Below, in pieces: positions 4,353-53,975 of a stretch of 64,000 nucleotides of DNA. This DNA is from Rhodospirillales bacterium (GTDB lineage: Bacteria > Pseudomonadota > Alphaproteobacteria > Bin95). Each line of letters opens with the position of its first letter. Positions within the stretch are counted from its first letter, which is position 1. Where the stretch lies: NCBI GenBank assembly GCA_008081395.1, contig VMCJ01000011.1, positions 14,264 through 78,263 on the forward strand, given 5' to 3'. A program made the translations under genes and the position numbers. The notes under the pieces were generated by a model. The model searched no databases, was not told the origin of the DNA, and worked only from the letters and a program-made list of their open reading frames with translations.

Positions 4353-4945
4353 TTGGGCTCCACTGGTGCGACTACACCAATTTCAATCAGCTTTGCTTCA
4401 GCAGTACTTGCTGTGGTGTCGACCGACGTGTCATTACTACTGATAACGATATCAGCTTCAGAATACGATGAAAGTCGGGCATTCAGGAGTTTTTCTAATT
4501 CTGCTCTTGGGTCCGAGACGTACAGCATTGGCCTGTTTGTTCTCCGTGAGACGCGCTGAAATAGCGTGTCCAAATCAGTGTCGATCCAGATACTGGCAGC
4601 TCTCTCCTTGGTTTTTTTTCGTGTTACTGGGTCTGCAAATGCTCCTCCGCCTAACGCGAGGATATGAGGAGGGTCATCTAGAAGGCGTGATATTACTCGA
4701 CGTTCACCTTCTCGAAATCCTGCTTCGCCTAATGAACTAAATATTTCTGGAATTGTGCATCCCGCAGCACGTTCAATTTCTGTATCCGCATCTAAAAATT
4801 TAGCTTCTAAGCGCTGCGCAAGTTTTCGCCCGATAGTGCTTTTGCCAGCTCCCATCATTCCCACTAGGACGACAGTGCGTTTTAGTCGGTAAGGTTTGTT
4901 TAGTTTGGCTTCTTTGGAATTCATTTCGTCTCGACAATCCGTCAT
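4349..4945 (-). CDS. aroK: shikimate kinase
   Basis: Walker A GMMGAGKST and the shikimate kinase fold are present. Length is 198 aa. It overlaps the aroB start. Confidence 0.85.
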   Translation of the reverse strand: MTDCRDEMNSKEAKLNKPYRLKRTVVLVGMMGAGKSTIGRKLAQRLEAKFLDADTEIERAAGCTIPEIFSSLGEAGFREGERRVISRLLDDPPHILALGGGAFADPVTRKKTKERAASIWIDTDLDTLFQRVSRRTNRPMLYVSDPRAELEKLLNARLSSYSEADIVISSNDTSVDTTASTAEAKLIEIGVVAPVEPK

Positions 4946-44230: not shown

Positions 44231-44902
44231 CTAGGGATTCCATAATTCTAAGTCTGCAACGGATGCCCGAATTTTAGTTTTTGTATCGTCGCTATCTGCA
44301 GAAATTGCTAAACCAACAAGCGTTGTGATTGGTGCACCAAAAGCAGTTAAAAAGTCTTGGTCTAAATTTACAGACTCTTGAAATCTTCCCAAGCCAGAGG
44401 GGCGTAGGATAATCGTTTTACCCTGATTACCCAGGTACGGCGTTAACAAAAAATCACCTCGTTTATGAGCTCCTCCAAAAACGTACATCAATACTCTGAT
44501 GGATTTATTGTCGAGCATTGAAAGCATTGACTTATGTTGCAGGGTTGGTGCGTCTTTTGCCTCCGCGAATACAAAGTACATTGCAAGATTGCGATCATCG
44601 CTTCCTTTAATAGTTAGATCCGTTGGGGGAACAGTTTTAGTTACCTCCCATGTCCATGACGCTTTTTTGGTCGATCCACTTTTGCCCTCTGTCGCAGACC
44701 AAATCATCGACACGGTTTTGTCAGATTCAACCAACACCTGGTTCATATTGGTTATGTATTTATTTGATGAGAACACTGAAAATTTTTGATGGGTCCAGCC
44801 ATCAAAATTGATCGACTTTGCTAATGCTGGATTGATGATAAATACCAACATGGCTAGCAGGCACCAAAGTATCTTCCCCGTTGAAAACAATGAATTATTC
44901 AT
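44231..44902 (-). CDS. hypothetical secreted protein in a low-GC stretch
   Basis: Signal peptide (LWCLLAMLVFIINPALA). Length is 223 aa. Local GC (~40%) is visibly lower than in flanking genes. Confidence 0.45.
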   Translation of the reverse strand: MNNSLFSTGKILWCLLAMLVFIINPALAKSINFDGWTHQKFSVFSSNKYITNMNQVLVESDKTVSMIWSATEGKSGSTKKASWTWEVTKTVPPTDLTIKGSDDRNLAMYFVFAEAKDAPTLQHKSMLSMLDNKSIRVLMYVFGGAHKRGDFLLTPYLGNQGKTIILRPSGLGRFQESVNLDQDFLTAFGAPITTLVGLAISADSDDTKTKIRASVADLELWNP

Positions 44903-44954: not shown

Positions 44955-45722
44955 TCATTCCATTACAAGGCCACCATCTACATAAATCGTTTGTCCAGTG
45001 ATGAAAGCCGACCAGGGTGAAGCTAGAAAAAGTACTGGCCCCGCTATGTCTTCGGGCTTCGCTATACGTCGCAATGGGGTGGCAGAGATAATATCTTCTT
45101 TGATATTTTCTCGCACCCTTTCGCTCGCTTTAGTTGGGTAAACTAACCCAGGGGCAACAGTGTTGACGCGTATTCCAAGGGGGCCAAGTTCAGCTGCTAA
45201 TGTGCGCGTAAACCCTACTAGGGCGGCCTTTGCAGTTGCATAGTCGTGGTATGGGACGACGGGTCTCGCAATCAGATCGGTGGCAATGTTAATGATGGAT
45301 CCGTTGGCGCGGGTTAACATGTTTGGAACCGCTGCTTGCACCATATTATGAGCGGCCTGCACTGCACCCTCAAATTGGCTCTGGTAATCTTGCCAATCTA
45401 GGTCCCAATGAAGTTTCCTCCGCTCTGGGTCAAACTCATATGGTCGAAAAGCGTTGTTAACTAGAACGTCGATCTTCCCAAAGGCTTCAATGGTCTCGGA
45501 GACTAAGTTTGTTGCACCGTCTTTATTTGTAACATCAGAGCAGATTGCTAATGCTACTCCGCCATTTGTCTCGCAGGCTGCAACAGTTGCCGCCGCGGTT
45601 TCGGCATTGGTTAAATAATTTACACCAACGTTGGCCCCTTCGCGCGCAAAAGCTTGAGCAATTGCCGATCCTATCCCGCGACCAGCACCAGTGACGAGCA
45701 CACTTTTTCCGCTAAAATTCAT
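44955..45722 (-). CDS. SDR family oxidoreductase, last enzyme of the TPP-riboswitch operon
   Basis: TGAGRGIG Rossmann motif and a YxxxK active site are present. It starts 5 nt after the binding-protein gene. Confidence 0.8.
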   Translation of the reverse strand: MNFSGKSVLVTGAGRGIGSAIAQAFAREGANVGVNYLTNAETAAATVAACETNGGVALAICSDVTNKDGATNLVSETIEAFGKIDVLVNNAFRPYEFDPERRKLHWDLDWQDYQSQFEGAVQAAHNMVQAAVPNMLTRANGSIINIATDLIARPVVPYHDYATAKAALVGFTRTLAAELGPLGIRVNTVAPGLVYPTKASERVRENIKEDIISATPLRRIAKPEDIAGPVLFLASPWSAFITGQTIYVDGGLVME

Positions 45723-45727
45723 AGTTA

Positions 45728-46702
45728 TTATTTCGGTATGAGATCGCTGAAGATAACCTTTTTCATCTCTAATTTAGATTTAATTAGTCCTAGTTCTAAG
45801 AAAGTGTCAGCGCCTTTTTGCAAGAGCTCGACGTCAAAATGCCCAAGCCCTTTAGCTTTAGTCGTTTGTGATTGCGCAGAGAGATTTCGGAGTTTGATGA
45901 TTGCAAGGTTTACCTTTTCGTTCCGCCCGTTAATTGAGCGCGTTATAGCGATTTTTGCCGCTTCTTCCGGCTCAGAAATCATCCACGCAGCACTTTTTTG
46001 ATATGCTTTTAAAAATCGGCGGAGTAGGGGTTTTTGATCCCTATAATGATTGCGGCGAACGACAAACATATCGCTTGGTACATTAAGGCTATCTCTGACC
46101 TCTATTACATCGACCTCACCAATGCCCTTTAGTTTAGCAACGTAAAGGCCAGTGTCGGTTGCTGCAGTGGCATCCACTTGGCCTTGCATTACTGGTGCAA
46201 AGTTAAGCAGACCAGTTACCTTAATTTTAACATCAGTCTCTTTAAGCCCCACCTGATGCAGTAGGACCTGAAGATTTTGCCGAGTTCCGCTGGAAAGGCT
46301 GTATACCCCGATAGTCTTCCCTTTTAAGTCTGCCGGTGTCTTGATACCCCGACCAACCGGTGAAACCACGTTAAAAACATTTTGGGGGTAGATATTGTAA
46401 ATGGCTACTAAGTCCTCGCCTTTATCGAGAGCTTGATAGAAAGAGGCTGGATCTGTGAACGCTACATCCGCTGCTCCTGAGAGCATATTAGCAATTGCGG
46501 ACCCCCCACCTGCGCCTGGGACGTAGCCAAGGTCTATTCCTTCTGCTTTAAAAAACCCTTTGTCAGGTTCGGCAAGTATATTGGTGATTTCGCTAATTGG
46601 TTTACTCCAACCAGCAATACGTACCTTTTCAAGAGTTGCAGACATGGCTGCAGAGCTGGTGAAAGAGAACGCTAATATCGCTGCCAATAGAGAATGTTTC
46701 AT
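45728..46702 (-). CDS. ABC transporter substrate-binding protein, NMT1/THI5-like (ThiY-like)
   Basis: Signal peptide plus an NMT1/SsuA/TauA-type periplasmic binding fold. A TPP riboswitch heads the operon. Confidence 0.7.
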   Translation of the reverse strand: MKHSLLAAILAFSFTSSAAMSATLEKVRIAGWSKPISEITNILAEPDKGFFKAEGIDLGYVPGAGGGSAIANMLSGAADVAFTDPASFYQALDKGEDLVAIYNIYPQNVFNVVSPVGRGIKTPADLKGKTIGVYSLSSGTRQNLQVLLHQVGLKETDVKIKVTGLLNFAPVMQGQVDATAATDTGLYVAKLKGIGEVDVIEVRDSLNVPSDMFVVRRNHYRDQKPLLRRFLKAYQKSAAWMISEPEEAAKIAITRSINGRNEKVNLAIIKLRNLSAQSQTTKAKGLGHFDVELLQKGADTFLELGLIKSKLEMKKVIFSDLIPK

Positions 46703-47457
46703 TAGAAGGTGCCTTTCTGACGGCTTTGTAAAATCCGCCTCTCAATTACAACTATAATTTGATAAAAAAAGAGGCCCATAAGGGTGATCAGAATAAAAAG
46801 AGCGAAAATTAAGGTTGTATCCATCATCCCTTGAGCAGCAATGATGCTAGCTCCTAGCCCCTTGCTGCCTGCAATAAATTCGCCAACTACTGCGCCTACC
46901 AAAGCGAGAACTATCGCAACTCGAATTCCAGCTAGAATTACGGGCATGCTGGTTGGAAGCTTCAGTCGCAATAAGGTCTGAAGTCTGGTCGCACCCAGCA
47001 TGCGAAAGAGATCTCTTTTCTCCTGCGGAACATTTGATAAACCCGTTATTGTGTTTTCGAGCAGTGGAAAGAAACAGATTAGAGCTGTGATAATGACCGT
47101 AGAGGTCATCCCAAAGCCGAACCAGATTATGAAAATTGGTCCAAGAGCTAGTTTTGGCACTACCTGACTGGCAAGCACGTAAGGCCAAAGGAGACGGCGA
47201 AGGCGCGGCATTTCGGCAAGTATCGCGCCAATAAGGAAACCGATGACGCACCCTAGGGCAAATCCCAACAGAGTCTCAGCACCAGTTACCCAGAGATGTT
47301 GCCAAAGAGCACCAGATACAAGGCCATCCCAAAGTGTTTCTGTAACTGCTGAAGGCGCAGGAAGTACCAGAGGCGAAACTCCGGAGAGCAACACACCCAG
47401 CTCCCAGGCGATCAGTACCGCTACGAGCAGAGCAGAGCTGGATATATGCCTCAACAC
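46702..47457 (-). CDS. ABC transporter permease, NitT/TauT family (ThiX-like)
   Basis: 6-TM permease with an EAA-like loop. It overlaps both neighbouring genes. Confidence 0.8.
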   Translation of the reverse strand: MLRHISSSALLVAVLIAWELGVLLSGVSPLVLPAPSAVTETLWDGLVSGALWQHLWVTGAETLLGFALGCVIGFLIGAILAEMPRLRRLLWPYVLASQVVPKLALGPIFIIWFGFGMTSTVIITALICFFPLLENTITGLSNVPQEKRDLFRMLGATRLQTLLRLKLPTSMPVILAGIRVAIVLALVGAVVGEFIAGSKGLGASIIAAQGMMDTTLIFALFILITLMGLFFYQIIVVIERRILQSRQKGTF

Positions 47458-48215
47458 TGTCCCGCCCCTAATAACATTGCCGATCTGACTTTCCGGCAGA
47501 GTTTGGAAAAGTGGGCTTCATATCGTAAGTCTGAGGCTCGTGGTCTAGGAAGGTCTATTTCGACTTCGTGGGTAATAAGCCCTCCCTCCATAACTAAGAT
47601 TTTGTCTCCCAGGTATGCTGCTTCTCCAATATCGTGGGTGACAAAAATTACAGTCGTGCCGCTGGCTTCAACCAGATTGATTAATACGTCTTGGAGATCC
47701 TCACGGGTTAATGCATCAAGAGCAGCGAATGGTTCGTCCATCATTAGGACGGGGGGGGAGGTAACAAGCGATCGGGCAAGCGCTGCCCGGCTTTGTTGCC
47801 CGCCCGAAAGTTGTTCTGGATAACGTTGAGCAAGATGCTTGATGCCAGCGAGTTCCAGCAGTTCGAGCGCAAATTTTTCATCCGATTTATTTACAGAGCC
47901 TTTAAGACTTATAGGTAGTAAGACGTTATCAATTACCGTTAACCATTCTAGAAGGGATGGCGTTTGAAATACAAAACCAACATCTGAAGATGGCCCATCG
48001 ACAGGGGTATCGCTAATTTTAATTGAGCCGGACGATGGTGCCAGCAGGCCAGCAGCCACTTTTAAACATGTAGTTTTTCCGCATCCACTCCTGCCGACCA
48101 AGCAATAAAACCCGCCTTTGGGAATGTTAAAGTCAATTCCCAAAAGACCTTTTGATCCATTAGAAAAAGTATAGCTAACTTTTGATAGGCTAATTGAGGT
48201 TGGGTTAGTCTGCAT
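47451..48215 (-). CDS. ABC transporter ATP-binding protein (ThiZ-like)
   Basis: Walker A GRSGCGKTT, the LSGGQQ signature and Walker B MMDEPF are present. Confidence 0.85.
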   Translation of the reverse strand: MQTNPTSISLSKVSYTFSNGSKGLLGIDFNIPKGGFYCLVGRSGCGKTTCLKVAAGLLAPSSGSIKISDTPVDGPSSDVGFVFQTPSLLEWLTVIDNVLLPISLKGSVNKSDEKFALELLELAGIKHLAQRYPEQLSGGQQSRAALARSLVTSPPVLMMDEPFAALDALTREDLQDVLINLVEASGTTVIFVTHDIGEAAYLGDKILVMEGGLITHEVEIDLPRPRASDLRYEAHFSKLCRKVRSAMLLGAGQC

Positions 48216-49656
48216 AACTGGCCAAATCTTCAGCAGCAGTTTCAGCGCGAGCCTCTATTTCGGTTATTCTTACTAGGTCAAGCAAATTGAAACGTCCATC
48301 GTGGTGCCAGCCGGCTTCTGGTGAGGTCATATCGCCAAGAGCAGTAACACGGGTCACCCCGACTTCACCTAACATGGAGGCAAGGTTGAAAAGACGTTCT
48401 GGTGTCGCAGAGATTGCCGCCGTTTGGATCAATGTTTTGTAGGGCTTGGATAATATTGGCGTTTCTTCAAGGTCGTCGACGGCAACAATTCTGATAGTAC
48501 GATTAAGACCACTTGGCCTCAGTGCACGGTCTTGCAGTTGAATTGAGACAGTCCAATTACCGTTGCATGGTTCTACGACTTTACCACCCAGACGGGTCTC
48601 TTCTGCCATACGCCATTCTACTAAGCTAGATGCCTCGGCAAGAGAGAGGGGGCGCCGCGGGAATTTTTCCTCATAACTTGCAAGTGATTGGGCTATGTAA
48701 GTTCCAAAAGTTTCTGGTGAAATTGCACCACCTTTTTCGACGAAGAAAACATGCGGTGAGTAACACCCCTGCTGGTCATATCGTACAACGTCGTATGCAG
48801 CCTTTCTTGCAGTTGAAGAGGCGCGGGAGGGATCAAGGGCTTCTCTCCCAATTAGGCCAAAGCTGATTTTATGGCCGTGAGCTAGAAAGCGCGTCGATGC
48901 TGGGGCTTGCGCTGCTAGCGCTGCGATCGCCGTGTCTCCACCGTATGCAAGTGCAACATCTGCTTCCCTAAACAGTCCGGCCTCAAGTTCTGTATTGCCG
49001 CCCTGCCACCAAACCAGTGCTATCGTCTTCGCGAGTTCAGGATCGGTTTCCGCTAAAACGTCATGAAACCACCCTGCAAAAAAAGGCTCAGCTGTCGCAA
49101 CCTTTCCAACGCTTGCGGCCTTCACTAACAGTCCAGCAATCAGTGTCCAAAGAGGCAGACCAGGAACATTTCCTGCCCAAACATGTGCTAAGAGATCAGG
49201 TCCAAAGGCACGACCAAAGCCTCCTTTAACAAGTGGCTGGAATTTGTCGAGAATACCTGGGTTTGGAAAGTCTTCGGTAATGAAACGCTGAAGTTGCGGT
49301 TTTCTGAACGTTTTGAGATAGCCAGTAAGGCCAATCCGCACCATTTCTTCGTCATAGCCAGTCACTATTGGCAGCAAATGCTCCATTTTTTTTCGAACTG
49401 GGTGGCTTCTGTCGAGAAGACGGGCCACTGTCTGGTCAATAGCAGTAAGAACCCTATCGACAGGCCAAGTTTTGACACTGTTTCTCGCGTTGAGCCGAAC
49501 TTTGGAGGCGATGATACTCAGATCTGCGGACTGCAAATTTGGCGTTAATGCAATTAAGCTCTTTTCACCATCTCCGCCATATTGCCTGGGCTCCCAATGA
49601 ATCCTCTCTGGATCAAGCCCATGAAGGCGGCCTACGTATTCAACGTCTGTTGTCAA
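48205..49656 (-). CDS. LuxC-family acyl-CoA reductase (aldehyde-forming)
   Basis: 483-aa protein whose architecture and conserved blocks resemble LuxC (aldehyde dehydrogenase-superfamily fold with a catalytic Cys region). It overlaps the LuxE-like gene by 4 nt. Confidence 0.65.
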   Translation of the reverse strand: MTTDVEYVGRLHGLDPERIHWEPRQYGGDGEKSLIALTPNLQSADLSIIASKVRLNARNSVKTWPVDRVLTAIDQTVARLLDRSHPVRKKMEHLLPIVTGYDEEMVRIGLTGYLKTFRKPQLQRFITEDFPNPGILDKFQPLVKGGFGRAFGPDLLAHVWAGNVPGLPLWTLIAGLLVKAASVGKVATAEPFFAGWFHDVLAETDPELAKTIALVWWQGGNTELEAGLFREADVALAYGGDTAIAALAAQAPASTRFLAHGHKISFGLIGREALDPSRASSTARKAAYDVVRYDQQGCYSPHVFFVEKGGAISPETFGTYIAQSLASYEEKFPRRPLSLAEASSLVEWRMAEETRLGGKVVEPCNGNWTVSIQLQDRALRPSGLNRTIRIVAVDDLEETPILSKPYKTLIQTAAISATPERLFNLASMLGEVGVTRVTALGDMTSPEAGWHHDGRFNLLDLVRITEIEARAETAAEDLASYAD

Positions 49657-50735
49657 TTTGCAGCCGCCGATATCAAAAATTCATCGACCGCCATTGAACA
49701 CCCCTGAGCCTCGGCACCACTAACGCGCCCATGGAGCATGAAACCTTCATCCACCTCAACCCCTGCATCTTCTGTCAATATAGTGGTTACAATATTGAAG
49801 TGGGCGAGGTCTGTGTGCGCAAGAACACCAGTCGTGCCCTTGGGGAGGGATGAGCCTGTGAGAGGGTCAACGACACGTGTTTTTATCCAATGGGGGCCAG
49901 ATTTAACAGACGGACAAACAGCATTACCATTGTCATAGAATTGGGTGCTGAGCTCAGTCATTCCATACATATTGATGCAGTTTGCGCGAGAGACCCCAAA
50001 AGCATTTTGAAGGGCATCATAAAATGTATCCAACTCCAACTCTCGGGATTGGCCTTTAAAACCTCCAGTATCGAGAAGGCGGCTGCCAGGCGGTAGTTGG
50101 AAGCGTCTTCCCTGACGTTCCATTTCATCTAAAACATGGACGAAGCTGAAACTGGCGCCCAGCAAACCGTATGATACACCATTTTCTTCTGCATCTTCCA
50201 AACTGTGGAATAAGCGTTCGTAATCGATGCCATTACTTCTAACAAAGTGGGAGCTTCCCTCAGAGCCAAAGTATTGCTTGGCGAGTTCAAGATAATGGGC
50301 GAGCGAGGAATTCGGCATAGCCACAGGTGGCGGAAAAAGAATGCCAATTTTTAGTTTTTCTCTATTGCCCATGAATCGTTCGAGAAAATTTTGACGCATT
50401 GATGCGTTATATACGGCCAAGGTTGGATGGTAGCTTTTCCCTCTTTTTCCACCCTGTGTTGTGCCACTTGTCATAAAGGTGGCTTCTGCACTTGTTGGAG
50501 AGGAGCATGTAAGGTCAAGCGTCTTGAAGGCGCTGATGGGTACAGCGGGAATATCTGCCCAGTGCCGCACCGTTTTGGGTGTTTTTCCTCTTGCTAAGCA
50601 AAACTTTTTGAACGGCAGGTTATGTTCAAATTGATATGCAAAAATTGAAAGCGCCATCTGATCGAAATCGGCTTCGACAGCATTTTTATTTTCGATGAAG
50701 GTTAGGAGTTTGCTAACAACTTCAGCCTCATCCAT
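49653..50735 (-). CDS. LuxE-family acyl-protein synthetase (adenylate-forming, ANL-like)
   Basis: TSGTT AMP-binding P-loop (MTSGTTQGGKRGKSY), about 360 aa in length, and LuxE-like conserved blocks. It is the first gene after the riboswitch. Confidence 0.65.
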   Translation of the reverse strand: MDEAEVVSKLLTFIENKNAVEADFDQMALSIFAYQFEHNLPFKKFCLARGKTPKTVRHWADIPAVPISAFKTLDLTCSSPTSAEATFMTSGTTQGGKRGKSYHPTLAVYNASMRQNFLERFMGNREKLKIGILFPPPVAMPNSSLAHYLELAKQYFGSEGSSHFVRSNGIDYERLFHSLEDAEENGVSYGLLGASFSFVHVLDEMERQGRRFQLPPGSRLLDTGGFKGQSRELELDTFYDALQNAFGVSRANCINMYGMTELSTQFYDNGNAVCPSVKSGPHWIKTRVVDPLTGSSLPKGTTGVLAHTDLAHFNIVTTILTEDAGVEVDEGFMLHGRVSGAEAQGCSMAVDEFLISAAAN

Positions 50736-50789
50736 CGCGCTATCTCCACTCAGAGGATGACACTAGGAGAGGGATAGGCCGCATCTTTA

Positions 50790-50930
50790 GAGTCCCATTC
50801 CCTCCGCCGGTATAATCCGGTTCAGGTTCAAAGGGTCATCGTGCTGACACTCATTTTAGTCAACGACCAATGGTGTCTATCGATATCTCAGCCCTTAAAG
50901 CAGGGCCCCCCTACGGTAAGTCCCAGACGC
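50790..50930 (-). promoter_or_regulatory. TPP (thiamine pyrophosphate) riboswitch, THI-box
   Basis: The minus-strand RNA reads ...GGGGGGCCCUGCUUUAAGGGCUGAGA-(variable hairpin)-ACCCUUUGAACCUGAACCGGAUUAUACCGGCGGAGGGAA. Compare the E. coli thiM aptamer GGGGUGCCC...GGCUGAGA...ACCCGUAUCACCUGAUCUGGAUAAUGCCAGCGUAGGGAA. The aptamer ends ~55 nt upstream of the luxE-like ATG. A CUCUCC element could sequester the GGAGAU Shine-Dalgarno. Confidence 0.85.
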
Positions 50931-51062
50931 TAAGTGGAAAACTGCTCTCGCGTCAAGATTGATATGATATTTTTTGCCGGCCTTATTTTCGAGTTTATCA
51001 CAAAAGTAAAAAAATACATTTGCGGTTGAAGAGGCTAATTATGCTCTCTTATCTCTGGCTTA

Positions 51063-51911
51063 TTAGGAAATTAAAACTCCTTTGGCGTCGTCTGACGCGA
51101 TTGTACAACGCCAGTGAACACGACGCTCTTCGATGGGATAATCTGCTGTTGCAGAATGGAGTGTGCAACGATTGTCCCAGGTAACCAGATCACCGACTTC
51201 CCACTTGTGTCTATATTCTGCCCCCGGTGCAATTTGATATTGTTCTAGTTCTTGAAAAAGATCCTTCGCTTCTTGATCAGATAAGCCAACGATCCGCAGC
51301 AAATGTGTAGGATTGAAGTAAAGAGTTTTTTGTCCAGTCTCACTATGAGTGCGAATTAAGGGGTGTCGCACTGGTGGAAGATTTCTGTCCTCTGGCTCAA
51401 GCAGTTCCGAACTTTTTCGAGATACACCCCCATAAACATAATCTGCTTCCAAGTTTTGAATTCTCTTCTTAAGGGTATTTGGTAAGGAGTTATAAGCCAT
51501 AGCCATATTGGCAAAGAGCGTGTCTCCACCTCTTGATGGGATCTCCAAGCCAAAAAGCTGTGTGGCTTTACACCCCTTTGGATCCCAAGGACCATCTGTG
51601 TGCCATCCGTGTCCGCGCGTATATACCGGCCTATTTACAGTCCCATCAGCATTGCGAGCATTGGTGCCCATGACCGTCAATTCGGGATGATTTGGATGAC
51701 GTGATTTTTTTACTAAGTGTGGAAAAATTTCGCCAAAGCGTCGGCCATAGCTGAGAAAGTCTTCAATTGTAAGTTCTTGACCACGAATGCAGATCACACC
51801 AGCTTCGAGCCAGGCTCTATAGATCAGCTGAAATTCACTGTCGCTTATGCTTCGAATATCTATACCGGTGACGATTGCCCCACAGCCAGGACTGGCCTTT
51901 TCAATATGCAC
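51063..51911 (-). CDS. TauD/TfdA family Fe(II)/2-oxoglutarate dioxygenase
   Basis: HxD...H facial triad (HWHTDGPWD ... H) and TauD-like blocks are present. The likely GTG start at 51911/51914 sits immediately after AGGAGGAGG, which overlaps the upstream stop. The ORF-track TTG start at 51950 would overlap the LLM gene by 29 nt. Confidence 0.75.
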   Translation of the reverse strand: MHIEKASPGCGAIVTGIDIRSISDSEFQLIYRAWLEAGVICIRGQELTIEDFLSYGRRFGEIFPHLVKKSRHPNHPELTVMGTNARNADGTVNRPVYTRGHGWHTDGPWDPKGCKATQLFGLEIPSRGGDTLFANMAMAYNSLPNTLKKRIQNLEADYVYGGVSRKSSELLEPEDRNLPPVRHPLIRTHSETGQKTLYFNPTHLLRIVGLSDQEAKDLFQELEQYQIAPGAEYRHKWEVGDLVTWDNRCTLHSATADYPIEERRVHWRCTIASDDAKGVLIS

Positions 51912-51921
51912 CACCCTCCTC

Positions 51922-52917
51922 CTACTGCAGCTCGCTTTTGATTTCACCAATTAGTTCAATTGCCTTGAGTACATCCTTTTGGGCTAATCCAGGCCACTGC
52001 AGCCTAACTATCAGGTGATTGACCCCAAGTTTTTGGTTAAGCCATTGGATCCGATCTTTCACCATAGCCTTGTCGCCAATAATGAAACGAGCTGCTTGGA
52101 AGTCATCAAAAGCCTCTTCGAAAGGTTGTCCTGCAACATTGGCGCTACCCCACGACGCGTAAGCTGAATACTTGTAAATTAGGGGTTCCTTGGCGATAGC
52201 AAAAGCCTGTTTAGCCGTAGTAGCGACGAAGCATTCCCGTATCATTGGTTTTTCAGTGGGAGGGCCAAGACCTTTTGCTTCGCGTTCTTCATCATAAATC
52301 GCGTAATTGCGTTCCAACTGATCCCAATCAGCAGATGGGCTAACTAGCCAGGCATCAGCTATTCGAGCAGCACGACGTATTGCGGGTTCTACGCTTGCTC
52401 CGATCCAAAGAGGCAGGGAGGATCCATTTTTGGGTCTAACAGAGGCGCCAACGTCTGTTAGCTGAAAGAACTGGCCCGTATGAGAAATGCGGTCCTCTGA
52501 CCAGAGGCGCCGAATGACGTTGATTGCTTCTGTCGTCCGAGCGGCACGCTTACTAAAATTGACCCCAAAGGCCTCGAATTCTGCCTCACGATATCCTAGG
52601 CCAACGGCAAGAATATAACCACCTCTGCAGATCCAATCGAGTGTTGCTGACTCTTCGGCCACTTGAACAGGGTTAGTCATACCTAGGAGCCATATACCGG
52701 GCCCCATTCGCATATTTCCCGCTTCTGCAGCAAGTCTTGCTAACAGAATATTAGCCTGAAACATGCGAAGAGGCTGCGTCAGGTAGTGGTGTGGCGCTAT
52801 GATAGAGGAAAAACCACAATCGCGAGCAGTACGCACCTGAGCCAACAAATTTTCAGTTGCATCATCTAAAGGCGCGTCATCAGAAAATTGTGGATTTATG
52901 TAGAGGCCAAAGTCCAT
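51922..52917 (-). CDS. LLM-class (luciferase-like) flavin-dependent monooxygenase
   Basis: TIM-barrel LLM blocks with an MDFGLYINPQF start. The internal ATG at 52917 avoids overlap with the amidohydrolase gene. Length is ~331 aa. Confidence 0.7.
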   Translation of the reverse strand: MDFGLYINPQFSDDAPLDDATENLLAQVRTARDCGFSSIIAPHHYLTQPLRMFQANILLARLAAEAGNMRMGPGIWLLGMTNPVQVAEESATLDWICRGGYILAVGLGYREAEFEAFGVNFSKRAARTTEAINVIRRLWSEDRISHTGQFFQLTDVGASVRPKNGSSLPLWIGASVEPAIRRAARIADAWLVSPSADWDQLERNYAIYDEEREAKGLGPPTEKPMIRECFVATTAKQAFAIAKEPLIYKYSAYASWGSANVAGQPFEEAFDDFQAARFIIGDKAMVKDRIQWLNQKLGVNHLIVRLQWPGLAQKDVLKAIELIGEIKSELQ

Positions 52918-52940
52918 TTGACATCTCTCTCTTGCAGAAA

Positions 52941-53975
52941 TCAGTTTATTTTGTAGGTGCGAACCGCCGTGTCGTGGAATAGCTGACGTTTTTCGTCGAC
53001 GCTGTAATCCAGTGTAAGGTGCTTGAAAGAATTCCAAAGAGTGTTGTAGCTGCAGCTGGTCATATCTACTGGAAAGTTTGACTCGAACATACATCGACTG
53101 GTGCCAAAGTGTTCAATGGTATGTTCGTACCAACGTCGAGTTGCCTGCATTAAAGTTTCGCTAGTTGGTGGTGTGTTATGATTTTCCCAGCCAAAGCCGT
53201 TGATATCCATATTGATGCCACCAAGTTTTGCTAACACATTTTGACAGGTTGCTAGATCGGCTATTTCTTTCTGCCAGATTGGAAAAATGTCGTCAGCTTT
53301 ACCCGCATAAGGTCCAATTCCAAGAGGGCCTCCAAAGTGATTTAGAATGATAGTTGTATCTGGAAATGCCCGTGCTAGTGCGGTTACTTCTTTAAGTTGT
53401 GTGTGATAGCACCAGGCTTCAAAAGTCATATTTCTGGGAGCTAATTCAGCAAACCCTTCTCTGAATTTTGCATTTGAAAATCGGTCCGGCCCGTTTGCAT
53501 CTTTGGCGCTGCGAATCGAATTGTCAGCATCCCACTGGCCCTGGCAGCGAATTCCACGAAATCGCCCTCCGCCTGCTTGAACATGGGCATCAAGAACTTC
53601 GCCAACAGCACTGCCAATATTTAAATTGGCTGAGCCAACGATAGCTGCTGCAACCCTGCACTTCCCATACAAGCCAGAAGCACTCATCGCCGCGATACCA
53701 TTTACGAACTCTGTTTCTCCAACGCACTTCAGGTGCTCTGGACCACTCGCCCTGTACATCGCTGAGCACTCAATGAACACAGTGCTGACAATGTTATGAC
53801 CAGAATTTAAGTCCGACAAAATTTCATCAAGAAGATATTTCGGCGCTACACGGTCATGGCGAAACTCCCACAAGTGATGATGAGGATCACAGATCGGCAA
53901 TTCCGGCTCCAAAGTATCTTCGATGACTTTGTCTAACCATGGCTTATTTTTTGAAGGAGTCATCATGCTATCCAT
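52941..53975 (-). CDS. amidohydrolase-2 (PF04909-type) metal-dependent TIM-barrel hydrolase/decarboxylase
   Basis: N-terminal DPHHHLW metal-binding motif and an Amidohydro_2-type C-terminal region. Length is 344 aa. Confidence 0.75.
   Translation of the reverse strand: MDSMMTPSKNKPWLDKVIEDTLEPELPICDPHHHLWEFRHDRVAPKYLLDEILSDLNSGHNIVSTVFIECSAMYRASGPEHLKCVGETEFVNGIAAMSASGLYGKCRVAAAIVGSANLNIGSAVGEVLDAHVQAGGGRFRGIRCQGQWDADNSIRSAKDANGPDRFSNAKFREGFAELAPRNMTFEAWCYHTQLKEVTALARAFPDTTIILNHFGGPLGIGPYAGKADDIFPIWQKEIADLATCQNVLAKLGGINMDINGFGWENHNTPPTSETLMQATRRWYEHTIEHFGTSRCMFESNFPVDMTSCSYNTLWNSFKHLTLDYSVDEKRQLFHDTAVRTYKIN

Follow-up and report, generated by a model that had tools for sequence, protein, structure and literature searches.

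The three genes of an ATP-binding cassette (ABC) importer at positions 45728-48215 of a 64,000-nucleotide stretch of Rhodospirillales DNA (assembly GCA_008081395.1, contig VMCJ01000011.1, positions 14,264 to 78,263; the whole stretch is referred to as the window) form the middle of a six-gene operon. This operon starts at a thiamin pyrophosphate (TPP) riboswitch and encodes, in order, a LuxE-like acyl-protein synthetase, a LuxC-like acyl-thioester reductase, the ATPase, permease and periplasmic binding protein of the importer, and an OarX-like short-chain dehydrogenase/reductase (SDR). We suggest that it is a self-contained salvage operon, repressed by TPP, in which a carboxylated thiamin moiety would be imported and then reduced by the LuxE-like, LuxC-like and SDR enzymes. 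The most likely conversion would be from 4-amino-2-methylpyrimidine-5-carboxylate (PCA) to HMP (4-amino-5-hydroxymethyl-2-methylpyrimidine). We give this proposal somewhat better than an even chance; the direction of the pathway, its chemistry and the identity of the cargo are what we infer from the observations below. What is new here would best be described as salvage of a thiamin moiety by import of a carboxylated fragment coupled to reduction of the LuxE/LuxC/OarX type.

The importer lies within a six-gene operon under a TPP riboswitch

A sequence-only reading of this DNA had described an ATPase, a permease and a binding protein, in that order, downstream of a TPP aptamer. Both points are borne out: the coordinates of the three genes are exact, all lie on the minus strand, and Rfam places an aptamer upstream of them with a score above the gathering score, see Table 1. 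Two genes, the LuxE-like and the LuxC-like, stand between the aptamer and the importer, and the SDR follows the importer. All three components that define a ThiXYZ-type importer are present, i.e., a binding protein of the NMT1/THI5 fold, a permease of the binding-protein-dependent type and an ABC ATPase. The Walker A (GRSGCGKT), LSGG signature, Walker B (VLMMDEP) and H-loop motifs of the ATPase are all intact, and the N-terminus of the binding protein, MKHSLLAAILAFSFTSSAAMSA, can be read as a Sec-type signal peptide. The junctions from LuxE through the SDR measure -4, -11, -7, -1 and +5 nt, and as neighbouring genes overlap or nearly abut, the six genes are read as a single translationally coupled operon.

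The TPP aptamer is the only riboswitch that Rfam finds across the window. A custom covariance model, built from the Rfam aptamer matches at related loci, scores it at 109 bits. In an alignment of 57 related aptamers, 95.6% of the cells are paired and compensatory changes are seen in 18 of the 25 pairs; slid controls give 36-58%. The alignment was fitted to the covariance model, which favours the structure. In the minimum-energy fold of the leader, UCAUCCUC pairs with GAUGGAUGAGG and the AUG is covered, so the expression platform is predicted to sequester the ribosome-binding site and the start codon. The single-sequence fold is not statistically distinctive (z = -0.95) and the role given to the platform is for this reason a putative one. 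The same holds for a promoter-like site just 5' of the aptamer, which we list as a weak candidate since a promoter and terminator scan of the region gave no more sites than shuffled controls.

Table 1. Features of the operon and its surroundings in the window.
Feature	Positions	Strand	Length (aa)	Match or remark
TPP riboswitch aptamer (THI element)	50782-50922	minus		Rfam RF00059, 65.1 bits (gathering score 54.3), E = 1.6e-10, full model
Expression platform (putative)	50736-50781	minus		46-nt spacer from aptamer to LuxE start codon; inferred
LuxE-like acyl-protein synthetase	49653-50735	minus	360	PF04443, 64.3 bits; PDB 7xc6_E (LuxE), E = 1.6e-17
LuxC-like acyl-thioester reductase	48205-49656	minus	483	PF05893, 279.6 bits; PDB 7xc6_A (LuxC), E = 2.3e-15
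ABC importer ATP-binding subunit	47451-48215	minus	254	PF00005, 102.5 bits
ABC importer permease	46702-47457	minus	251	PF00528, 103.2 bits
Periplasmic NMT1/THI5-fold substrate-binding protein	45728-46702	minus	324	PF09084, 156.1 bits
OarX-like SDR	44955-45722	minus	255	PF13561, 198.9 bits
Promoter-like site (candidate)	50964-50992	minus		TCGAAA, 17 nt, TATCAT; 9 of 12 consensus positions
DUF3047 secreted protein	44231-44902	minus	223	PF11249; 52 nt after SDR; apparent N-terminal signal sequence
TauD-family dioxygenase gene	51063-51950	minus		directly upstream of riboswitch
Luciferase-like monooxygenase gene	51922-53094	minus		upstream of riboswitch

The operon is conserved in Proteobacteria

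More than 2,000 homologues of the LuxC-like protein are present in the protein collection, and a scan with one genome per species finds it encoded in at least 425 species-representative genomes. The 80 best of these 425 loci (L001-L080) were compared by tblastn with the window proteins. The full order LuxE-LuxC-ATPase-permease-binding protein-SDR is present in 55 of the 80, including Roseovarius, Yoonia, Cohaesibacter, Bosea, Azospirillum, Roseomonas, Asaia, Polaromonas and many marine metagenome-assembled genomes (MAGs). Fifteen loci, in Rhodospirillaceae MAGs and Pantoea, have a short form with LuxE, LuxC and SDR but no importer; this number includes L067, which the automated count of 14 had dropped for an unrelated distal ATPase match. 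The other 10 run into contig ends. In a plasmid search, all six genes turned up on Azospirillum chromids and on a plasmid of Priestia megaterium, and the short form on large Pantoea plasmids.

In the loci examined, the importer is never seen apart from LuxE, LuxC and the SDR, and look-ups with the binding protein as query, made with two orthologues and with the exact window sequence, lead to the same operon in every case. The sequence-only reading had called the coupling to reductive enzymes unusual; the link is real, and it is the rule across the related loci. Of the six proteins, it is the binding protein that is kept best in 52 of the 55 full loci; its identity to the window protein has a median of 72.6%, compared with 54.6% for LuxC. 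The riboswitch is part of the same arrangement. Rfam detects an aptamer directly 5' of LuxE in 13 of 17 short loci, and the custom covariance model detects one in 74 of the 80 loci; contig ends account for two of the six misses, which leaves 74 of 78 testable loci. When 548 flanking open reading frames (ORFs) were clustered, they showed synteny at the level of lineages only and no thiamin genes.

The exact sequence of the window binding protein is indexed in 201 blocks of a public assembly collection, including the MAGs GCA_038122045.1 and GCA_049448395.1, so the source organism appears to be widespread in sequenced metagenomes. Many close homologues come from marine samples, and the genes nearby have an alphaproteobacterial look.

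At three of the 80 loci a second TPP aptamer is found about 5 kb past the SDR on the opposite strand (L011 19388-19497, minus strand, 56.9 bits in Rfam; L002 19456-19564, minus; L006 19463-19571, minus). There it heads the operon of a LivK-type (Peripla_BP_6) ABC transporter of the branched-chain-amino-acid family, which would be another thiamin-regulated importer.

Gram-positive loci carry a different transporter

In Gram-positive bacteria the three reductive genes are accompanied by another transporter. All contexts examined except one have an NCS2 permease in place of the ABC genes; the exception is the Priestia megaterium plasmid (L081), which has the ABC form and an upstream aptamer detected by the custom covariance model. 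Small plasmids of Lactiplantibacillus plantarum and Levilactobacillus brevis carry the order TPP riboswitch, NCS2 permease of the xanthine/uracil type, LuxE, LuxC and SDR. Homologue searches combined with gene context reveal the same permease-LuxE-LuxC-SDR order in Limosilactobacillus fermentum, Bifidobacterium catulorum, Halobacillus, Priestia filamentosa and a metagenome contig, and NCS2-type loci are also present in Paenibacillus, Desulfosporosinus, Neobacillus and Niallia. The permeases are orthologous, being 57-78% identical to the one from Neobacillus (L099), and are PbuX-like with scores below the cut-off of that family. NCS2 permeases carry nucleobases.

The link to thiamin is also seen in these loci. 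TPP aptamers found by Rfam precede 10 of the 11 NCS2-type loci, the other one being part of a longer thi operon. In Paenibacillus sp. GP183 the module is located directly 3' of thiS-thiG-thiF-thiD-thiE, and in Desulfosporosinus directly 5' of thiS-thiG-thiH-thiF. In Neobacillus one TPP riboswitch drives thiM-thiD-thiE while a second drives ThiW-NCS2-LuxE-LuxC-SDR. A megaplasmid of Niallia taxi (L085) has tandem TPP aptamers (4540-4648 and 4727-4836) before ThiW, the NCS2 permease, LuxE, LuxC and SDR.

Since LuxE, LuxC and SDR stay even where the importer is missing or an NCS2 permease takes its place, we consider these three the core of the module, which the transporter serves. The importer, where present, is always placed between LuxC and SDR and is dispensable or replaceable, and the best reading is thus that it brings in the substrate of the reduction pathway.

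The LuxE-like and LuxC-like enzymes

The only PDB matches of the LuxE-like and LuxC-like proteins are to the LuxC-LuxE fatty acid reductase 7xc6. For the alignments, the authentic luxC and luxE of a reporter plasmid were used as reference. Cys346 of the window LuxE aligns with the acyl-accepting C-terminal cysteine (Cys360 of the reference LuxE, in 'KGCALS'). This cysteine and the TSGTT nucleotide-binding motif are each kept in at least 90% of 85 aligned sequences, i.e., 84 family members and the reference. In LuxC, the YDQQGC motif was aligned to the catalytic cysteine of 7xc6_A; the corresponding window residue, Cys298, is kept in at least 90% of 86 sequences. The LuxE-like protein is thus predicted to adenylate a carboxylic acid and to carry the acyl group as a thioester on Cys346, and release of the aldehyde is predicted for the LuxC-like protein. 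LuxE and the arylacetate ligases are members of one superfamily. Together with a carbonyl reductase, the ATP-driven activation of an acid and the reduction of its thioester would convert an acid via an aldehyde to a primary alcohol.

Given the Pfam assignments to LuxE and LuxC, the pair could be part of a LuxCDE-like fatty-acid reductase that makes fatty aldehydes or alcohols, next to an importer for some unrelated nutrient. Public annotation points the same way, as it labels the LuxE-like protein a long-chain fatty acid-CoA ligase or acyl-CoA synthetase and the LuxC-like protein an acyl-CoA reductase with a 'bioluminescence' Gene Ontology term. We regard this as highly improbable. The window proteins are only 22-23% identical to real LuxC and LuxE, and the NCBIfam equivalogs are missed by a wide distance (NF052251, 85.1 bits against a cut-off of 750; NF052244, 70.9 against 550). 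The operon contains neither LuxD nor LuxAB, the TPP riboswitch control is found across phyla, and the co-encoded transporters are of the nucleobase or NMT1 type and not lipid transporters. The mechanism of LuxE and LuxC appears to be retained, yet in a system that is not of the fatty-acid or bioluminescence type.

The SDR and its relation to OarX

From its conserved residues the window SDR is predicted to be an NADPH-dependent aldehyde reductase. All 78 sequences have Arg15 of the TGxxRGIG motif, Asn90, Tyr161 and Lys165, with Ser or Thr at position 148; an arginine in TGxxRGIG indicates a preference for NADP(H) in SDRs. A search against 1.8 billion representatives places a tight family around this SDR. 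All module SDRs that were scanned match NF006393 (PRK08642) best, with 262-299 bits, three of them above the cut-off of 292, while other SDR families score about 190-215 bits. The window SDR reaches 278.9 bits, and its next family 207.5 bits.

OarX is an SDR that has been known behind TPP riboswitches since 2002 (Rodionov et al. 2002) and whose function is unknown (PMC11223231). Oliveira-Filho, Rodionov and Hanson (2024) put forward as the compound reduced by it an activated carboxyl derivative of thiamin, i.e., PCA, 4-methylthiazole-5-acetic acid or thiamin acetic acid, and noted that oarX occasionally clusters with an 'acyl-CoA synthetase' (ACS); their growth tests in Corynebacterium glutamicum were negative (PMC11223231). 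The LuxE-like gene may be this ACS neighbour. A LuxC-type reductase, an NMT1-type importer or an NCS2 permease is not mentioned in that paper or in the other literature found. In literature searches on LuxC/LuxE with TPP riboswitches, on NCS2 permeases with TPP riboswitches and on salvage of the three acids, it was the only relevant publication.

As a stand-in for the published OarX sequences we used a locus of Rhodococcus sp. OK302 (L101, 5917-8132), which consists of a TPP aptamer (69.8 bits), an SDR and an NtaA/DmoA-family flavin mononucleotide (FMN) monooxygenase. Its SDR is taken to be of the OarX type because the locus matches the published oarX-fmnO layout (PMC11223231). This protein, annotated as '3-oxoacyl-ACP reductase', scores 435 bits on NF006393, compared with 279 bits for the window SDR, and the two are 43% identical. 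Judged by these scores, the window SDR appears to belong with OarX, as a sister branch on the edge of the NF006393 family.

NtaA/DmoA-family enzymes characteristically release aldehydes by cleavage of C-N or C-S bonds. The OarX-type SDRs may therefore reduce an aldehyde that comes either from LuxE/LuxC or from FmnO. It can tentatively be speculated that they are 'pyrimidine aldehyde reductases' common to two feeder routes, within an unrecognised B1 salvage route from PCA to HMP. In this still doubtful scheme LuxE/LuxC would form the aldehyde from the acid, and FmnO of the Corynebacteriales would form it through oxidative C-N cleavage of an aminomethyl-pyrimidine compound.

The binding protein is distant from ThiY, SsuA and TauA alike

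At about 18-23% identity, the binding protein is equally far from ThiY, SsuA and TauA, with 18% to ThiY in the Foldseek alignment. A profile of its family scores 56 bits to 4nmy, 55 to 3qsl, 34.4 to Thi5, 33.9 to ThiY (3ix1), 27.1 to SsuA and 22.7 to TauA. The AlphaFold2 model is of moderate confidence (pLDDT 74.6), with low-confidence loops at residues 35-40, 106-108 and 204-207, two of which lie within invariant motifs. Its top Foldseek matches are the thiamin-bound C. difficile protein 4nmy, SsuA and ThiY (E 3e-16 to 2e-15, TM-scores 0.68-0.73), the highest TM-score, 0.73, being to SsuA (2x26). Neither the profiles nor the model with Foldseek set the protein apart, as 4nmy, SsuA, ThiY, 3qsl, TauA and Thi5 fall within one band.

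NCBIfam gives the same picture. The binding protein stays below the cut-offs of SsuA_fam (TIGR01728, 102.7 bits against 163.5), SsuA (NF008588, 47.4 against 299) and TauA (TIGR01729, 27.7 against 304). The best families for the ATPase (SaoA, SsuB, NtrCD, TauB) and for the permease (SaoP, SsuC, TauC) are likewise all under cut-off. The sequence-only statement that the transporter is inseparable from sulfonate and nitrate importers is correct at the level of the family, by NCBIfam, PDB profiles and Foldseek. The firm clustering with SsuA/TauA that it had named as evidence to the contrary is not seen, and its expectation of a thiamin-related cargo is strongly supported, since a complete binding-protein-dependent importer lies under a TPP riboswitch.

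With SsuA_fam, SsuB, SsuC, TauB and TauC as best NCBIfam matches, and with a TauD-family dioxygenase gene and a luciferase-like monooxygenase gene directly upstream on the same strand, the importer might be thought an ordinary sulfonate, taurine or nitrate transporter of the NitT/TauT type that serves these two enzymes. There is very little to be said for this. All the matches are far under the curated cut-offs, the riboswitch stands between the TauD gene and the operon, and the control is by TPP and not by sulfur. The 5' end of the importer overlaps LuxC and the SDR begins 5 nt past the binding-protein gene, while the TauD and monooxygenase neighbours are found only in contigs of the same lineage and not in the 80 other loci.

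The family has invariant motifs of its own. The invariant blocks include IYNIYPQNVFNVV, GVYSLSSGT.QNL and TGLLNFAP..QGQVDATAATDTGL; these motifs are absent from ThiY and are likewise not common to the other proteins compared (4nmy, SsuA and others), which argues for a ligand of its own. This bears on the identification with ThiXYZ, proposed from the gene order and the riboswitch. Under that explanation the importer would be a true ThiXYZ-type transporter for HMP, formylaminopyrimidine (FAMP) or aminomethylpyrimidine, and the reductive enzymes would act on something else. The TPP riboswitch and the NMT1/THI5 fold, with ThiY among the top structural matches, agree with it, but we find it quite unlikely. 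ThiY is too distant and scores no better than Thi5 or SsuA, the invariant motifs are missing from it, the importer keeps to the company of the reductive trio and can be lost or replaced while the trio stays, and HMP would require no reduction. Furthermore, no TenA or YlmB deformylase is encoded between the riboswitch and the SDR in the 55 full loci, nor is TenA or a deformylase found in the Pfam-annotated flanks, TenA not having been searched by sequence in the unannotated flanks of L001-L080. Of the sequence-only interpretation there remains a TPP-controlled importer of the NMT1 type, which is not an orthologue of ThiXYZ and for which HMP or FAMP is not the favoured cargo.

A proposed salvage pathway and its cargo

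We suggest the following pathway. At low TPP the riboswitch would permit expression. The periplasmic NMT1/THI5-fold protein would capture a carboxylic-acid derivative of a thiamin moiety, PCA being the likeliest, and the permease and ATPase would import it. LuxE would adenylate the acid and hold it as a thioester on its C-terminal cysteine; LuxC would receive the acyl group on its own cysteine and reduce it with NADPH to the aldehyde. The SDR would then reduce the aldehyde to the primary alcohol HMP, which could join normal thiamin synthesis via ThiD and ThiE. PCA is a documented oxidative breakdown product of thiamin in bacteria and mammals (cited in PMC11223231). A carboxylate also agrees with the 'pyrimidine or thiazole carboxylates' that the sequence-only reading had named, there only as ligands to try.

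The context favours a pyrimidine acid in several ways. Where the ABC genes are replaced, their substitute is a nucleobase permease. The thiamin pyrimidine is a recurrent ligand of the NMT1/THI5 fold, to which the FAMP binder ThiY, the thiamin-bound 4nmy and the HMP phosphate synthase Thi5 belong, and in Paenibacillus the module is placed after thiS-thiG-thiF-thiD-thiE. In Bacillaceae the predicted thiazole importer ThiW stands beside the NCS2 permease, and the neighbouring riboswitch-controlled operon of Neobacillus has thiM, the gene of the matching kinase, and thiD, which suggests one uptake route for each moiety.

The same logic could apply to another cargo, with 4-methylthiazole-5-acetic acid reduced to the thiazole alcohol 4-methyl-5-(2-hydroxyethyl)thiazole (HET), or thiamin acetic acid to thiamin. 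The chemistry from acid via aldehyde to primary alcohol would be identical, LuxE is related to ligases that activate arylacetates, and 4nmy shows that the fold can bind thiamin. ThiW heads the operon in Niallia and Neobacillus, and the module adjoins thiS and thiG genes in Paenibacillus and Desulfosporosinus. OarX, moreover, is mostly associated with thiazole genes (PMC11223231). On the other side, the dedicated transporter in Gram-positives is of the nucleobase type, which would be odd for a thiazole acid; with ThiW present a second transporter would be redundant for a thiazole substrate; and thiamin acetic acid is a large cation unlike the known substrates of NCS2. None of these objections is decisive, and we take such a cargo to be a real if rather unlikely option.

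Several observations weigh against the proposed salvage of PCA. In contrast to the gene identities, the catalytic residues, the operon structure, the riboswitch control and the exchange of transporters within the module, which are seen directly in the loci, the cargo is read from context. PCA gave no growth of C. glutamicum ATCC 14067, an HMP auxotroph (PMC11223231). By sequence and by predicted fold the binding protein does not part from sulfonate binders, and in 4nmy the fold is able to bind the whole of thiamin. The chemistry of LuxE would suit thiazole-5-acetic acid or thiamin acetic acid just as well, and the presence of ThiW in the Bacillaceae operons may with the same right be taken to favour a thiazole substrate. 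At four loci (L003, L010, L026 and L042) the operon is present but no TPP aptamer is detected in the whole locus, even with filters off; L026 is cut within the permease gene while the other three are complete. Finally, neither the proteobacterial loci nor the window contain, within 10 kb, a homologue of thiD, thiE, thiG, thiF, thiM, thiW or thiH, and in Proteobacteria it is thus the riboswitch that carries the whole link to thiamin. As for the growth result, the strain carries oarX-fmnO and not the acid-activating LuxE/LuxC pair (PMC11223231). The result therefore does not address the window operon, and the negative outcome would be explained.

Neighbouring genes

The region at 51063-53975 on the minus strand, directly upstream of the riboswitch, holds Amidohydro_2, luciferase-like monooxygenase and TauD-family genes, which are conserved only in contigs of the same lineage (L096-L098). 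Here the coordinates of the longest ORFs overlap, and the products predicted by gene callers are shorter, at 331 and 282 aa. The TauD-family and monooxygenase genes were considered as parts of the system and rejected, being outside the riboswitch unit and lineage-specific. The DUF3047 gene that follows the SDR has no tblastn homologue in L001-L080 and is present only in L096-L098; as it is lineage-specific, it was rejected as a component and is probably not part of the system.

Two further observations were made beside Gram-positive loci. In Desulfosporosinus sp. FKB (L092) a c-di-GMP-II riboswitch at 1666-1752, within a few kb of the thiamin module, precedes a small ORF and a gene for a histidine kinase. 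In Limosilactobacillus fermentum (L087 10550-13910, minus strand; L088 8304-11658, minus strand) a PfkB-family kinase, an NCS1 (Transp_cyt_pur) permease and an ADP-ribosylglycohydrolase are encoded beside the module on the opposite strand. The CytX-type transporters of HMP belong to NCS1.

Significance

Thiamin and its fragments limit the growth of many marine and gut microbes, and predictions of which compound each of them needs rest on the known salvage genes. If the proposed pathway is true, a module present in at least 425 species, and whose binding-protein sequence occurs in hundreds of metagenome assemblies, would add carboxylated thiamin fragments to the B1 cycle. Communities of seawater, soil, food and the gut would then have PCA as a new B1 vitamer to exchange, and OarX would gain a function more than 20 years after it was flagged. 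The puzzle of OarX also becomes directly testable, as the hosts Azospirillum, Pantoea, Bosea, Priestia, Lactiplantibacillus and Bifidobacterium are culturable. The present database labels of the operon proteins (nitrate or NitT/TauT transporter, long-chain fatty acid-CoA ligase, 'bioluminescence' acyl-CoA reductase and 3-oxoacyl-ACP reductase) are misleading.

Comparison with known systems

The closest comparison for the transporter is ThiXYZ, whose binding protein ThiY binds FAMP in Bacillus halodurans (3ix1). The two systems share a binding protein of the NMT1/THI5 fold, an SsuC-type permease, an SsuB-type ATPase and control by a TPP riboswitch, and both are thought to salvage a fragment derived from thiamin. 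However, the window binding protein is about 18% identical to ThiY and equally far from SsuA, and it belongs to a tightly conserved subfamily with other invariant motifs. It is linked to LuxE, LuxC and an SDR instead of to TenA or YlmB, and its cargo, a carboxylate in our proposal, would have to be reduced, where a formylamine has to be hydrolysed. SsuABC and TauABC of the NitT/TauT type have the transporter family and the fold in common with the window importer. Here, no curated cut-off is reached by the window proteins, a link to SsuD, SsuE or TauD is not conserved, and the control is by TPP and not by sulfur.

The LuxC-LuxE pair of bioluminescence (7xc6) is likewise a two-protein system with activation by ATP, transfer from the cysteine of LuxE to the cysteine of LuxC and release of the aldehyde with NADPH, and both cysteines and the nucleotide motif are conserved in the window family. 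The window operon differs by its low identity of 22-23%, by the absence of LuxD and luciferase, by an SDR that is always present and by the control through a vitamin riboswitch; its substrate is probably a small heteroaromatic acid and not myristate. The carboxylic acid reductases (CAR, adenylation-thiolation-reductase), together with aldehyde reductases, also reduce aromatic acids to aldehydes and alcohols with ATP and NADPH. However, CAR is one multidomain protein with a phosphopantetheine arm whereas the window operon has two separate proteins with cysteine thioesters, and the architectures are unrelated.

The window SDR has the same best-matching model, NF006393, as the Rhodococcus SDR of the oarX-fmnO layout, and like OarX it is under the control of a TPP riboswitch; the published hypothesis that an activated carboxyl derivative of thiamin is reduced fits the window operon. 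The window SDR and OarX differ in their partners: OarX is paired with the FMN monooxygenase FmnO, whereas the window SDR is paired with LuxE, LuxC and a dedicated transporter.

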